DNA of 64,000 nucleotides from Myxococcota bacterium (GTDB lineage: Bacteria; Myxococcota_A; SURF-8). The stretch covers positions 2,208,001 through 2,272,000 of the forward strand of contig CAXXQS010000002.1 of the NCBI GenBank assembly GCA_963674735.2. The letters run 5' to 3'. The notes beneath the pieces are model-generated. The model was not told the DNA's origin. It saw only the letters and a program-made list of their open reading frames with translations, and did not search any database. The position numbers and the translations under genes are program-made. Positions 47,700 through 53,048 of the stretch are shown piece after piece (the first letter of the stretch is position 1; every line of letters begins with the position of its first letter).

Positions 47700-50588
47700 C
47701 TAGCTGCAGCCGTGTTGGGTGCCGCAGTTTGTGCACATGTAACAGGAGCCGCTACGTACCATGATCGTACCGCAACTCGGACAACCGGGGGCGTCCTCCT
47801 GATTGACGTAGGCTTGCCGTTCCGATTTGGCGGCGTTGTGGCCGTTTTTCGCGATGACCGTATCCGCGCCATTGGTGATGGTGGGCTGAACCTGATTGCC
47901 GACCATGGTGCGCTTCTCCTCGGTGAGGAATTTCGATCCCAACCAACGGAAGATGTAATCGTAGATCGATTTCGCCATGGGAATTTCGGGGTTCTGGGTG
48001 AAGCCCGCCGGTTCGAAACGCATGTGGCTGAACTTCTCGACCAAATCCTCCAGTGGGACGCCGTACTGCAAGGCGAGGGATGTCATGGTGGCGAAGCCGT
48101 CCATCAGACCGGAGACCGTGCTGCCTTCCTTGCTCATCAGCAGGAAGATTTCACCGGGTGCGCCGTCCTCATAGGTGCCGACCGTCACGTAACCCTCGTG
48201 GCCGCCGACGCTGAATTTGTGGGTGATGGCCTGACGCTCGTCGGCCAGTTTGTGGCGCAGACGTTGGGGCTCGATTTCTTTGGCTTTTTTCTCCCCCGTG
48301 TTGAGAGGCTGGGTGCGCTTGGAGTTGTCGCGGTAAATGGCCACCGCTTTGAGTCCCAGTCGCCAGGCTTCGGTGTAGGCCTCCATGATATCGTCGACGC
48401 TGGATTCTTCGGGCATGTTGACCGTTTTCGAAATTGCCCCGGAAATGAAGGGCTGGCAGGCACCCATCATGCGCAGATGTCCCATATGGGAGATGAAACG
48501 CTGGCCGTTGACGGGCCGTAGCGCGCAATCGAATACCGGCAGGTGCAGCGGATCGAGGTGCGGCGATCCTTCGATGGTCTGGTTTTCATCGATATAGGCG
48601 ACGATGTCGTTGATTTTCTTGTCTGCATAACCCAACCGGCGGAGCGCCCGCGGCACCGACTGGTTGACGATGGTCAGTGTCCCGCCGCCGACCAGCTTTT
48701 TGTATTTGATCAACGCGAGATCCGGTTCGATACCGGTGGTGTCGGCATCCATCATAAATGAAATCGTGCCGGTGGGGGCGATGACCGAGACCTGCGCGTT
48801 GCGGAACCCGTGCTCGCTACCCGTCTCCAGCGCATCGTCCCAGGTCTGGCGCGCCGTATCAAGCAGCGTTTCGGGGACCAATTCGCCGTCGATCGTATCC
48901 ACCGCTTGGCGATGCGAGCGGATGACATTGATAAAGGAGTTGCGGTTTTTATCGTACTCCTTGAAAGGTCCGGTATGTGCGCTGATGCGTGCCGAGGTGG
49001 CGTAGGCGTGGCCCGTCATGATTGCGGTGATGGCGGAGGCATAGGCCCGGCCCGCATCCGAATCGTAGGGCAGGCTGCGGGTCATCAGCACCGCGCCCAG
49101 GTTGGTGTAGCCAAGTCCCAGGGGACGGTAGAGATGGCTGTTCCAGGTGATTTTGTCGCGCGGGTAGCTGGCGTTGTCGACGATGATTTCCTGTGCGATC
49201 ACGAAGGTTTCGACCGCTTTTTTGAACGCCTCGGCATCGAAGTCATCGTTGTCGTTGAGGAAGGTCATCAGATTGAGTGACGCGAGGTTGCAGGCCGAAT
49301 TATCGGCGAACATGTACTCCGAGCAGGGGTTCGAGGCGTTGATGCGCATGGTGTCGGAGCAGGGGTTCCATTTGTTGATGGTGGTATCGAACTGCATGCC
49401 GGGATCGCCGCAGATGTGGGTGCCTTCGGAGATTTTACGCAGGAGGCCGCGTGCCGGGAAGGTATCCATTTTCTTGCCGGTGGTGACGGCCTTGGTGTAC
49501 CAGACATCGTCGTCGTCGACTTTCTGCATGAAGTCGTCGGGCACGCGCACGCTGTTGTTGGAATTCTGGAAGAAAACCGACCCATAGGCTTCGCCATTGA
49601 TGCCGCCGTCGTAACCCTGATCGATCAGCGCCCAGGCTTTCTTTTCCTCGTTGACTTTACATTCGATGAAATCCGTGATGTCGGGGTGTTCGATGTCGAG
49701 AATCACCATCTTGGCCGCACGGCGCGTTTTTCCGCCCGATTTGATGACACCGGCGAAGGCGTCGTACCCTTTCATGAAGCTCACCGGACCCGAGGCGACC
49801 CCGCCGGTGGAAAGATGCTCGCGGCTGGAGCGCAGTGCCGACAAGTTGGTGCCGGTGCCCGAACCGTATTTGAAGAGCATGCCTTCGGTCTTGGCCAGGT
49901 CCATGATGGACTGCATGGTGTCGTCGACGCTGTTGATGAAGCAGGCCGAACATTGGGGATGTTCTTCCTGGCCGACGTTGAACCACACCGGAGAGTTGAA
50001 GGCGCCGCGTTGGTGCAGCAGAAGGTAGGTGAGTTCATCGCGGAAGATGTCGCGGTTTTCTTCCGTGCTGAACATCCCTTGCTGGAGTCCCCACTCGGCG
50101 ATGTTGACGGCTACGCGGTCGATCAGGTCGCGCAGACTCTTTTCGCGGGTTGCTTCGCCCAATTTGCCGCGAAAATATTTGCTGACCACGACGTTGGTGG
50201 CCATTTGGCTCCAGAACGTGGGGAATTCGAGGTCGTTTTGCTCGAAATAAATTTCGCCCTTATCATTGGACAATTTGGCCGAACGCGTTTCCCATTCGAC
50301 TTCGTCGTAGGGGTGAACGCCTTCTTTGGTGAAGTAGCGTTTCATCGCGATGCCGGGGCCCTGGTGCTTCAGCTTCTTGACATCCAGGATGTAGTGTCCG
50401 CCACGTAGTTTGATCAACAACTCGCGCATATTAGTCGCGTCTCCTTTTGCGGTTACCTTGAGGGGAGCATCGTAGATTTCGTCCCATCCATCCGCAACAG
50501 CATCCCGCATGGGAGTTGTCTCCGCATCGGTGGTGGTTTGTTCGACAGGGGCTGACTGCTTGCGGTTGTCGGTCCGTTCAATGGTCAT
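47700..50588 (-). CDS. nrdJ: vitamin B12-dependent (class II) ribonucleotide reductase
   Basis: FNSPVWFN, QCSACFI, ASNPCSEY, APTGTIS, GAISKTVN, TSCPD-like region, C-terminal CPSC...CTNC...GCS. Confidence 0.96.
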   Translation of the reverse strand: MTIERTDNRKQSAPVEQTTTDAETTPMRDAVADGWDEIYDAPLKVTAKGDATNMRELLIKLRGGHYILDVKKLKHQGPGIAMKRYFTKEGVHPYDEVEWETRSAKLSNDKGEIYFEQNDLEFPTFWSQMATNVVVSKYFRGKLGEATREKSLRDLIDRVAVNIAEWGLQQGMFSTEENRDIFRDELTYLLLHQRGAFNSPVWFNVGQEEHPQCSACFINSVDDTMQSIMDLAKTEGMLFKYGSGTGTNLSALRSSREHLSTGGVASGPVSFMKGYDAFAGVIKSGGKTRRAAKMVILDIEHPDITDFIECKVNEEKKAWALIDQGYDGGINGEAYGSVFFQNSNNSVRVPDDFMQKVDDDDVWYTKAVTTGKKMDTFPARGLLRKISEGTHICGDPGMQFDTTINKWNPCSDTMRINASNPCSEYMFADNSACNLASLNLMTFLNDNDDFDAEAFKKAVETFVIAQEIIVDNASYPRDKITWNSHLYRPLGLGYTNLGAVLMTRSLPYDSDAGRAYASAITAIMTGHAYATSARISAHTGPFKEYDKNRNSFINVIRSHRQAVDTIDGELVPETLLDTARQTWDDALETGSEHGFRNAQVSVIAPTGTISFMMDADTTGIEPDLALIKYKKLVGGGTLTIVNQSVPRALRRLGYADKKINDIVAYIDENQTIEGSPHLDPLHLPVFDCALRPVNGQRFISHMGHLRMMGACQPFISGAISKTVNMPEESSVDDIMEAYTEAWRLGLKAVAIYRDNSKRTQPLNTGEKKAKEIEPQRLRHKLADERQAITHKFSVGGHEGYVTVGTYEDGAPGEIFLLMSKEGSTVSGLMDGFATMTSLALQYGVPLEDLVEKFSHMRFEPAGFTQNPEIPMAKSIYDYIFRWLGSKFLTEEKRTMVGNQVQPTITNGADTVIAKNGHNAAKSERQAYVNQEDAPGCPSCGTIMVRSGSCYMCTNCGTQHGCS

Positions 50589-50904
50589 GTGGTATCTCCC
50601 TCTCTGTACGTTCTAAAAACCTGAAAGGCTCGAATGTTCAATGTTATCAAAAAGATCGCTGGTAACGTCCGGGTCTGGAAAAACGCACACAACTCTCCCT
50701 GCGTCAACGGCTTACGCCTTACGCCCCGTATCGCTTCGCTACCTTGATTTTAGTTTTAACGGGTTGATATCGCCTGTCGGCAGCATCCCCGGTTTATTCC
50801 ACTCACTGTATTTGAGAGCCGACCCACGCCATGGTGCTCATGATCGCTACGGAGCCATCCTGCACAGTCCCTCTGGGCGATATGTTGGGTGCTCACAAGC
50901 AGCG

Positions 50905-50933
50905 AAACTATCAAACTCCTAGTGCCTTGTCAA
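50905..50933 (-). promoter_or_regulatory. sigma70 promoter of nrdJ
   Basis: TTGACA-17-TAGTTT on the minus strand. Confidence 0.7.
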
Positions 50934-50940
50934 GGAGCAC

Positions 50941-50988
50941 ATACAATATCTAGCGACTCAAACAATGGAAGTATACCATATCTAGGGG
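50941..50988. promoter_or_regulatory. tandem NrdR boxes
   Basis: ATACAATATCTAGCG and ATACCATATCTAGGG, 32 bp apart, resembling acaCwAtATaTwGtg, abutting the -35 upstream of an RNR gene. Confidence 0.8.
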
Positions 50989-51484
50989 GTCTATTCAAGT
51001 CGGAGGATGTGGAAACCCCTAAGGGTTCAGCTAACTTGGCCATGTGGAATACGGTCTCGTGCGCCTTTCGGCCGTTTCGGGCTGAAAAATCCACTGAATT
51101 CAGTTGATTGGCGTTTGACGGAACGCAAAGCCGAAAAATGGCGAAAGCGAGGTTTTTTTTCTTGAATTTTTTTCGCATCGGCGAGGATCGCCCGAGGGTT
51201 TGAACAAATGTTGTGCATGGAATGTAAGGTTATGATAATACAGTGCAAATAGGTGAATTGCGGTTCATTGACCGTGGATCTGCCCCCGCTATTTTTGCTG
51301 ATCATTGCTAAGCAGCTGAAATTACAATGTATTATGAGTGGTCGACTTGTGGCGGTGGGTGATAGGTATCTAACTATTAATATATTGGACAGTCACGATG
51401 TATTCAATGATTATACACTGTTAGCTTGCGTTGGATGTCGATTTGCCTGTGGTGGCCGGACTGTTGAAAAGCGTCTGCTTAACA

Positions 51485-51519
51485 TAAAAGGAAGAGAGCC
51501 GGTCGTTGAACCGGCTCTC
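51485..51519 (-). terminator. Rho-independent terminator
   Basis: 10-bp stem GAGAGCCGGT/ACCGGCTCTC followed by TTCCTTTT on the minus strand. Confidence 0.78.
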
Positions 51520-51729
51520 AACCCGTCTTGGTCGAAACGAGGGGCTAACAGGTGCTCCACCCATTGGAACACCCGATTCGGGGCTATAGACGGTCTCCGC
51601 GTGGGAGAGGGAAGGAAAGGCGCGCAGCAAAAAGCCCAAGATTGGCTTCCAACGGGCTGGTTACCCTGGAAACCCTTGATGCCAAGTTACGATGCCACTC
51701 CCACGCGGAAGACCGGGACGCAGGACACC
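51485..51729 (-). ncRNA. candidate sigma54-dependent structured small RNA (~245 nt)
   Basis: -24/-12 promoter upstream, several stems whose G-U pairs favour the minus strand, intrinsic terminator, no credible ORF. Confidence 0.6.
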
Positions 51730-51740
51730 CTACTGATTAC

Positions 51741-51756
51741 GCAAGCGGGGTGCCAG
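51741..51756 (-). promoter_or_regulatory. sigma54 (-24/-12) promoter
   Basis: CTGGCACCCCGCTTGC: GG-N10-GC in TGGCAC-N5-TTGC context; AT-rich IHF-like tract at ~51790-51815. Confidence 0.75.
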
Positions 51757-51887
51757 TTTCGCTTTCAGAGTTGCTGAAAACATGAAAAAGCTAGTTAATA
51801 TAGATTGTTAGATGAGATTCCAGAGACAGGGACGCATGGCCTAATTAACTTGGAATGAGGAAAAACCGGGCATTTTTGTCAGATGTG

Positions 51888-52475
51888 TCAGGTTGGGCGC
51901 GGATCCGATCCGGGGCCGGGTGCAATTGCATAAACTTTACGCAAATGATAGAGCTGAAAAATGGCCCGACGCATGCATGCCCGGCTGACGTTGAACAGCG
52001 AGGCCAGTTTGAGACTGATGCGGTCGAGCTCCGTCCGGTTTTTCGGGCTGTAGTCCACTTCGGGGCAGTGGGTGTCCAGCAGCCAAAGGGGGACGAGCAG
52101 GCTGGAAGCGAAGAGATCAGCCTCTTCTTCTACGCGGCGGTCGCTGGGGGGTGTTTCGTCGTCGGCGTCCGCCAGCAGGTGGTGGTGCAAAAGGAAGTGT
52201 CCATATTCATGGGCGATCGAAAAGCGTTGGCGTGGAATCGGCCGCCGGTCGTTGAAGTAGATGGCGGCCCGGTGAACGCGTCCCGAGGCGTCTTGGTCGA
52301 TTTTCAAGAGCGAATCGGCCTGCCCCAGCGCGGCTGGCAAGACTTTCAGATCGGGATGACAACGGTGCAGCAGGTCGGTGGACACCGGCGGGTGCTCGAT
52401 TTCGCTTTGCTTTAAAAGCCGGTCGGCAAGCCGGACAATGCGCAGGGTTCGGGTGAGCGGGCGGGTAGATGGCAT
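51888..52475 (-). CDS. ImmA/IrrE family metallopeptidase
   Basis: RQRFSIAHEYGH (HExxH), EEEADLFASSLLVP, LASLFNVS. Confidence 0.9.
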   Translation of the reverse strand: MPSTRPLTRTLRIVRLADRLLKQSEIEHPPVSTDLLHRCHPDLKVLPAALGQADSLLKIDQDASGRVHRAAIYFNDRRPIPRQRFSIAHEYGHFLLHHHLLADADDETPPSDRRVEEEADLFASSLLVPLWLLDTHCPEVDYSPKNRTELDRISLKLASLFNVSRACMRRAIFQLYHLRKVYAIAPGPGSDPRPT

Positions 52476-52476
52476 C

Positions 52477-52866
52477 TCAGCCGTCTCCCAAGATGAGGTC
52501 GATGGCGGCTTTTACCTTGTCGTTGGCCTCCACCGCACGAATCACCTTCATGGCGTAAGCAACCTGTTCCGGGGTCAGTGTGTGCCCTTCGCGAAAAAAA
52601 ACCTGACCGGTTTCGGGCGGCTCGTAATAAGGCCGGGCGGCGTCCGCCGCCTTCTCGCGCTGGCGGCGCAAAATCATCTCACGCTTATCCAGATTCAGAA
52701 TTTCACATAATTCCAAAAGCTTGGGTTCGGATGGCAGCGAGCGTCCGTGTTCGAGGTGCGCAATATAGCCTTCGGTGCATTTAAGACGATGGGCCAGTTG
52801 CGCCTGCGTCATGTGTGCGTATTGGCGGGCTGCCCGGATGTGGTCTCCCAGTTTCATGTCGGCCAT
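52477..52866 (-). CDS. XRE-family HTH repressor
   Basis: LGDHIRAARQ..MTQAQLA..YIAHLEHG..P; start moved to ATG 52866. Confidence 0.9.
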   Translation of the reverse strand: MADMKLGDHIRAARQYAHMTQAQLAHRLKCTEGYIAHLEHGRSLPSEPKLLELCEILNLDKREMILRRQREKAADAARPYYEPPETGQVFFREGHTLTPEQVAYAMKVIRAVEANDKVKAAIDLILGDG

Positions 52867-52880
52867 CCTTGTATGCAACC

Positions 52881-53048
52881 ATACTATACAAATATAGTAT
52901 ATTAGATAGGCGGGGAAAGCAAGTGAAATAAACGGGCGGAATAAGACAGTAATACTTTTACATATCAGTAAACTATGTCGATTACTAATCACACATAAAT
53001 CCGCCGTGTGACATATTCTGTCACAGTCCAATACTTATTATTAAGTAT
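52881..53048. promoter_or_regulatory. divergent control region with three palindromes
   Basis: ATACTATA-CAAA-TATAGTAT (52881-52900), TGTGACA-TATTC-TGTCACA (53007-53025), ATACTTA-TTAT-TAAGTAT (53031-53048). Confidence 0.65.

Follow-up and report, generated by a model that had tools for sequence, protein, structure and literature searches.

A candidate sigma-54-dependent small RNA gene with a conserved anti-Shine-Dalgarno-like tract in an uncultured order of Myxococcota

A minus-strand segment between an ImmA/IrrE-type peptidase gene and nrdJ, in the 64-kb stretch of DNA analysed here (the window), very probably holds a genuine gene for a small regulatory RNA not described before, from an uncultured Myxococcota group, with a sigma-54 promoter and an activator site. 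The initial annotation had read this segment as a self-contained, non-coding sigma-54-type unit of ~245 nt, and that core reading is supported by five homologues (in genomes G004, G003, G001, G009, and G006), by an activator-type site, and by compensatory changes in the predicted stems. We consider it moderately probable that the locus is an independent, sigma-54-dependent gene for a trans-acting small RNA (sRNA) with pairing of the anti-Shine-Dalgarno type. The features of the locus are collected in Table 1.

Table 1. Predicted features of the sRNA locus and its flanking genes, in window coordinates
Feature	Position	Strand	Details
XRE gene	52477-53031	-	Upstream of sRNA; 184 aa; overlaps its ImmA pair partner
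ImmA/IrrE-type M78 peptidase gene	51888-52475	-	Upstream of sRNA; 195 aa
Predicted activator site TGACAAAAATGCCCGG	51866..51881	-	126 bp 5′ of the T of TGGC; immediately follows the ImmA stop codon
AT-rich spacer, activator site to promoter	51757..51865	-	63% A+T over 110 bp
Sigma-54 -24/-12 promoter CTGGCACCCCGCTTGC	51741-51756	-	Perfect TGGCAC-N5-TTGC
5′ leader with UCCUGCG	51716..51729	-	UCC[UC]GCG in four genomes of family f1 (alignment A4)
P1 5′ arm CGGUCUUCCGCGUGGGAG (…CCGCGUGGGAG)	51698..51715	-	Closing stem
P2 region	51677..51697	-	Small hairpin in relatives; poorly formed in window
P3 hairpin	51644..51675	-	Ten pairs, seven double-changed
CU-rich anti-Shine-Dalgarno-like tract GCCUUUCCUUCCCU	51608..51621	-	Predicted exposed; GCACCUUUCCUC in relatives
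P1 3′ arm CUCCCACGCGGAGACCG	51591..51607	-	Pairs with CGGUCUUCCGCGUGGGAG
3′-extension hairpin GGUGUUCCA/UGGAGCACC	51551..51573	-	Robust in every fold; specific to window genome
Weak 5-bp hairpin CUCGU/ACGGG	51522..51541	-	Arms 51541-51537 and 51526-51522; one U-G pair
Intrinsic terminator	51485..51519	-	11-bp stem 51519-51494; loop CAAC; tail UUCCUUUUAU
nrdJ sigma-70-like promoter	50998-50970	-	TTGAAT-17-TATACT with upstream TG; nrdJ's own
nrdJ, class II ribonucleotide reductase	47700-50588	-	Downstream of sRNA

The minus-strand -24/-12 element claimed at the outset is a perfect consensus match, at 51756-51741, and the alignment shows TGGC-N7-TTGC in all six homologues (6/6); from the promoter position, the RNA is predicted to start near 51729 (minus strand). 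By itself, a perfect 10-base consensus is no rarity, with 16 copies of TGGCAC-N5-TTGC counted in the 5.26-Mb genome and ~12 expected from a hand estimate based on base composition. At least eight of the 16 perfect sites have a Sigma54_activat gene at a distance of a few kb or less. The genome encodes RpoN (rpoN, 216.6 bits) and ~21 Sigma54_activat genes; no such gene was found in the 64-kb window or among the scanned neighbours of the homologous loci.

Upstream of the promoter, the DNA of the six copies is unalignable apart from a 16-nt near-palindrome with the family consensus TGACAA-N4-GTCCGG. In the relaxed form [TC]GACA[AT]N4G[TC]CC[GT]G it is present in 6/6 homologues, 112-126 bp upstream of the -24 element, a count made on the very six sequences that had served to define the motif. 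There are 27 matches to the relaxed motif in the 10.5 Mb of strand of the window's genome (2.6e-6 per base), and only at the sRNA locus is one combined with a consensus -24/-12 element at a distance of 112-126 bp. Because position and form are as expected for an enhancer-binding-protein site, the near-palindrome at -112 to -126 is likely to be one. The intervening tract had been described as AT-rich and IHF-like. The AT-richness stands (Table 1), and the spacer is possibly a DNA-bending region, but the likeness to an IHF site is limited; scored against the IHF consensus WATCAANNNNTTR, the best match in the window is 10/13, and we rejected an IHF site there, with 12-13/13 matched in G004, G009, and G006.

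The window RNA would be about 243 nt long, with a conserved core of about 150 nt. Folding reproduces the closing stem (P1) as first proposed, a 17-bp stem with one bulged U formed by 51715-51698 with 51607-51591 and enclosing ~90 nt; within it lies hairpin P3, whose loop is UGGCC in 5/6 genomes and UAACCAG in the window. The proposed terminator stem and U-rich tail were also found, with 11 bp rather than 10 in the stem, as was the CU-rich anti-Shine-Dalgarno-like tract, which is part of the CU-rich stretch CCUUUCCUUCCCUCUCCC at 51620-51603 (minus strand). Two small hairpins had been included in the RNA between P1 and the terminator. Both are predicted in the window, and neither is a family-wide feature: that at 51551-51573 is present in all folds and has no counterpart in G004, G001, G009, or G006, and that at ~51522-51541 can form in one minimum-free-energy fold but is weak, missing from the centroid of that fold and from two other folds; its counterpart in G003 is CUCGU/ACGAG. 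Similarly, UAGCCCC does recur in the window (51586-51580 and 51547-51541, minus strand), but is not conserved across the family. The small hairpins and UAGCCCC repeats make up a 3′ extension, found only in the window and partly in G003. Canonical terminators directly follow P1 in G009 and G006, giving RNAs of ~174 nt; a terminator scan found no canonical terminator in G004, G003, or G001.

A 256-nt minus-strand RNA from the window has a predicted folding energy of -113.5 kcal/mol (z = -5.1), and 0/200 shuffles were equally good. The plus strand of the element folds well too (-102.5 kcal/mol, z = -4.0), and there are open frames over the element on both strands, including a 174-aa plus-strand frame at 51253-51777, as might be expected of a protein-coding stretch or of a DNA element that folds by chance, with no RNA gene at all. 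We regard that explanation as exceedingly improbable. The frames have no Pfam match; the six rows of the core alignment contain 26 gap runs, of which 23 have a length not divisible by three, and every reading frame is broken because of indels among the homologues; the variable columns are spread over the three codon phases as 32/29/26, showing no codon periodicity in the substitutions. By these measures the element does not look coding, in keeping with the earlier view that it holds no credible ORF. The orientations of promoter and terminator concur, and compensatory changes support a minus-strand RNA, as do many G-U pairs in P1, P2, and P3 that are compatible with the minus strand only.

Conservation of the structure was tested on a MAFFT alignment of the six sequences (A4), built structure-blind. 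Standard pairs fill 92.1% of cells, versus 81.4% in column shuffles (0/500 as high) and 44-62% in a slid control in which the 3′ partners were moved by 1-3 columns. Double-sided changes occur in 11 of 31 pairs, versus 5.5 in shuffles (0/500), and these compensatory changes are in P1 and P3. P1 has 15 pairs, four of them double-changed, with 93.9% of cells paired; P2 has four pairs, none double-changed, with 83% of cells paired; and P3 has ten pairs, seven double-changed, with 91.5% of cells paired. With six sequences, two of which are 89% identical, these statistics have little power, and the shuffle test is inflated by relatedness; the covariation is suggestive rather than conclusive for a conserved structure.

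A BLAST search with the 301-nt element against 60 relatives returned a 32-nt terminator stretch in G050 as its sole match. Two genomes of the same family have ImmA orthologues, and through these a copy in syntenic position was found in G004; its promoter is of the same type, its closing stem differs in a compensatory way, and it carries the same CU tract. A first covariance model, built from the window and G004 copies, identified single full-length copies in G003 (86.5 bits), G001 (54.7), G009 (27.6), and G006 (26.5), reverse-strand matches scoring 10-20 bits. With a refined model built from all six copies, these score 133-170 bits and the next best match in 151 genomes of the phylum scores 20.7 bits. 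Homologues, a search for which had been named as a check on the RNA, are present in five other genomes, and the promoter is kept in all of them.

The five other carriers, with one copy each, represent three genera of the window's family together with two genomes of a sister family, and all carriers fall within one order of Myxococcota; the covariance model gave no convincing copy in the other 145 of the 151 sampled phylum genomes. Four of the six genomes of the window's family carry the RNA gene, and the two without a match are 79% and 86% complete. Both genomes of the sister family carry it, and in two further families of the order, each represented by one genome, there was no convincing match. 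Vertical inheritance within one order of uncultured Myxococcota is the best explanation of this distribution, as far as it can be read from the sampled genomes.

Several weaker matches to the model were set aside: one in G006 (contig C1, 18.2 bits) has no -24/-12 element, those in G017 and G047 are of partial length (E 0.03-0.09), and those in G002 and G007 have E values of 0.15-0.6. Exact-pattern scans of metagenome and genome collections yielded no further family members. The 16 stretches from the metagenome scan, which demanded an exact stem sequence that diverged copies would escape, were all attributed to chance (no promoter, coding-like sequence). Of 69 stretches from the genome contigs, three pass the model, and these are the G004, G009, and G001 copies already known; G003 and G006 fit the pattern yet are not among the 69. 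DNA contigs from sequencing runs that cover the locus are identical to the window, with no variants.

The genes flanking the RNA vary. An XRE-ImmA pair lies upstream in 2/6 genomes (window and G004) and nrdJ lies downstream in 2/6 (window and G001, which have genes further upstream in common as well); the neighbours in G003 and in the G009/G006 pair are unrelated, and in 4/6 genomes the downstream gene differs and nrdJ is located elsewhere. The initial annotation placed the RNA between nrdJ and an ImmA/XRE switch, which is true of the window, but a functional link does not hold up, with each neighbour present in 2/6 genomes; for XRE/ImmA, we rejected the link as not conserved. Since the neighbours vary between genomes, the XRE/ImmA and nrdJ neighbourhood of the RNA gene is, on the loci compared, incidental. 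This variability argues for a stand-alone, vertically inherited gene over either an nrdJ leader or a component of an XRE/ImmA system.

Some further observations concern these neighbours. The window and G004 share XRE, ImmA (51888-53031), and two ORFs further upstream at 53-62% identity, and the ImmA orthologue of G003 is on a contig other than that of its sRNA and has one in-frame TGA. In the G009 and G006 loci, which are collinear, the sRNA sits between an operon coding for a TPR protein and a PMT_2-type glycosyltransferase and a gene for a 620-720-aa protein with no Pfam match, and carA lies ~3.5 kb downstream.

The position of nrdJ, downstream on the same strand in both the window and G001, together with conceivable read-through of the terminator, would suit a cis-acting leader or attenuator, in which the sigma-54 promoter drives a terminator-bearing 5′ UTR of the downstream gene. 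We judge this very unlikely. A different gene is downstream in 4/6 genomes, whose nrdJ is elsewhere; the terminators of G009 and G006 are strong; and in the window ~490 nt of non-coding DNA follow the terminator before nrdJ's own sigma-70-like promoter and NrdR-box-like repeats are reached. A riboswitch or other cis leader was likewise rejected, the downstream gene not being constant (nrdJ in 2/6, unrelated genes in the rest).

The spacer between the sRNA terminator and the nrdJ promoter (51000-51485) is AT-rich, has no credible ORF, and is not conserved in G001; several sigma-70-like hexamer pairs are present in it on both strands. Two 15-nt repeats on the minus strand, ctagatatggtatac (50985-50971) and ctagatattgtatgt (50953-50939), lie 32 bp apart over the nrdJ promoter and resemble tandem NrdR boxes. 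Of the spacer between the RNA and nrdJ, this promoter and repeat segment alone aligns with G001. The nrdJ promoter is followed by a 5′ UTR of ~370 nt without an Rfam match.

For the stand-alone sRNA gene that we favour, we propose the following mechanism. An enhancer-binding protein encoded elsewhere would bind TGACAA-N4-GTCCGG ~125 bp upstream and, once bound, switch on sigma-54 RNA polymerase at TGGCAC-N5-TTGC. The transcript would fold with the long closing stem P1 around hairpins P2 and P3, leaving a conserved pyrimidine-rich strand, GCACCUUUCCUC…UUCCCUC, unpaired beside the P1 3′ arm, and transcription would stop at the intrinsic terminator. The exposed tract could then pair in trans with purine-rich ribosome-binding sites and block translation, with no need of Hfq. 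Transcription itself, its dependence on sigma-54 and on an activator, the base pairing, and the existence of targets are in this scheme what we infer from the features of the DNA.

The CU tract, just before the P1 3′ arm, is the best conserved unpaired element of the RNA, and it resembles the 3′ end of the genome's 16S rRNA (…GGAUCACCUCCUUUCU). Its predicted unpaired probability is 0.76 in the window, versus 0.36 for the whole RNA, and 0.51-0.81 in the five homologues, versus 0.38-0.43; RNAalifold on two sequences pairs part of the tract internally. On these predictions, a trans-acting sRNA that works through an accessible anti-Shine-Dalgarno-like tract is the most likely mode of action. Hfq was not found in the genome. 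A single-genome search of the window's genome gave no specific target; 1067 sites there have a 9-mer in common with the tract complement, and the non-conserved GCGCGC part dominates the ranking. In several genomes the tract can pair with the nrdJ ribosome-binding site at -12 to -16 kcal/mol, and we rejected nrdJ as a supported target, its ribosome-binding sites in the six genomes pairing no better than ordinary Shine-Dalgarno sequences.

A real sigma-54-driven RNA might instead bind protein, as a sponge or scaffold, or have some other structured role that does not involve mRNA pairing. The fold does go beyond that of most seed-type sRNAs: the closing stem is long, it encloses two hairpins, and the UGGCC loop is conserved. 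Together with another UGGCC further downstream, this loop could give a 4-bp pseudoknot, with 23/24 cells paired and one double change; these pairs barely vary, however, and so carry little information, and there is one mismatch in the window copy. CsrA is encoded in the genome and the RNA has several GGA triplets, but these are mostly inside stems P1, P2, and P3, vary between homologues, and are not kept as loop motifs, and a CsrB/RsmZ-type CsrA sponge was set aside. The top conserved unpaired element is the CU tract and not a purine motif, and against a Y-RNA-like role, no Ro/TROVE protein was found: a bacterial Y RNA (YrlA-like) was dismissed because the genome (94% complete) gave no TROVE match and the RNA no Rfam match. 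Altogether we think a protein-binding or other structural role unlikely.

We note that the potential GGCC-GGCC pseudoknot occupies A4 columns 104-107 and 130-133 (~51662-51659 and 51635-51632 in the window), and that the window copy accounts for both its double change and its mismatch. Elsewhere in the same genome, beyond the window, the single csrA gene has a perfect TGGCAC-N5-TTGC ~1 kb upstream on the same strand (G000 C2:881904-883138).

In a bolder variant, the RNA would be more than a simple seed-type sRNA: a structured particle, built of the closing stem, a three-way junction, and the GGCC-GGCC pseudoknot, that displays a mimic of the 16S 3′ tail and, as the sole output of a dedicated, unlinked enhancer-binding protein (a one-promoter regulon), once induced competes broadly with ribosomes for Shine-Dalgarno sites or sequesters a ribosome-associated protein. 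If this were true, translation initiation would be lowered throughout the cell in response to a sigma-54 signal, but we consider it distinctly unlikely.

No part of the window matches Rfam 15 at gathering scores in a cmscan search, which upholds the earlier impression of a novel RNA, and at E<=10 the region 50400-52100 gave three chance-level matches only. One of the three is the terminator hairpin against a Brucella sRNA, which was discounted (12.4 bits, threshold 218). Pxr is presumably one of the 4227 Rfam models searched. The RNA is not of the Pxr family, differing in size, fold, genomic position, and sequence, and a search of the literature, which was not exhaustive, found no description of it.

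A few model bacteria are known to have sigma-54-dependent sRNAs, and to our knowledge Pxr is the only one studied in Myxococcota. The RNA described here would add a second, unrelated sigma-54 sRNA family, in a deep, uncultured branch of that phylum. We take it to be a real, new RNA family of a known type; it reveals no new regulatory principle and adds one more instance to a kind of regulator already known. Its full cassette of activator site, promoter, structured RNA, and terminator is readable from sequence alone and offers a definite starting point for tracing the cognate activator and signal. The covariance model can be used for annotating related genomes, and the family would be a test case for Hfq-independent anti-Shine-Dalgarno regulation.

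Among known sRNAs, RsaE and RoxS are C- or CU-rich anti-Shine-Dalgarno sRNAs that present UCCC motifs in their hairpin loops and do not depend on sigma-54. The RNA here is like them in exposing a pyrimidine-rich motif complementary to ribosome-binding sites, the presumed seed, but presents it as one long single-stranded junction tract (predicted) and has no Rfam match. In the Qrr, CrcZ, and GlmY systems, a single signalling pathway has the RNA as its output. CrcZ and GlmY are decoys for proteins, and the Qrr RNAs are Hfq-dependent and ~100 nt long. The Qrr/LuxO (Vibrio), CrcZ/CbrB, and GlmY/GlmZ/GlrR systems share with our locus an activator site, a sigma-54 promoter, a short RNA, and a terminator. 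They differ in that Qrr depends on Hfq, which was not found in the window's genome, and in that Qrr, CrcZ, and GlmY/GlmZ have no sequence or Rfam similarity to the RNA here. The Qrr sRNAs are also covered in PMC10162802.

Closer in design are the sigma-54-dependent ncRNAs of Desulfovibrio vulgaris Hildenborough. According to PMC4641369, these were found by comparative genomics from an activator site plus a -24/-12 element, number four in the regulome, serve a dedicated enhancer-binding protein as its main or sole target, and mostly adjoin the gene of their activator, for example downstream of DVU0653 or DVU0679. Our RNA has the same design, with its presumed activator unlinked.

Pxr of Myxococcus xanthus and related Cystobacterineae is from the same phylum and is likewise a stand-alone, lineage-restricted RNA with several stem-loops, a predicted sigma-54 promoter, and an enhancer site (PMC5568312). 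The pxr coding region is given there as 108 nt with three stem-loops, always flanked by the activator gene nla19 on one side and an NADH dehydrogenase gene on the other (PMC5568312). In contrast, the RNA here is ~174-243 nt with a long closing stem, comes from a different, uncultured order, and has no activator gene in the window or among the neighbours scanned. What the locus does share with the sigma-54-dependent sRNA class is a promoter of that type in a genome encoding RpoN, an activator-type site, a non-coding product, a terminator of its own (in the window, G009, and G006), flanking genes that vary, and a conserved structure.
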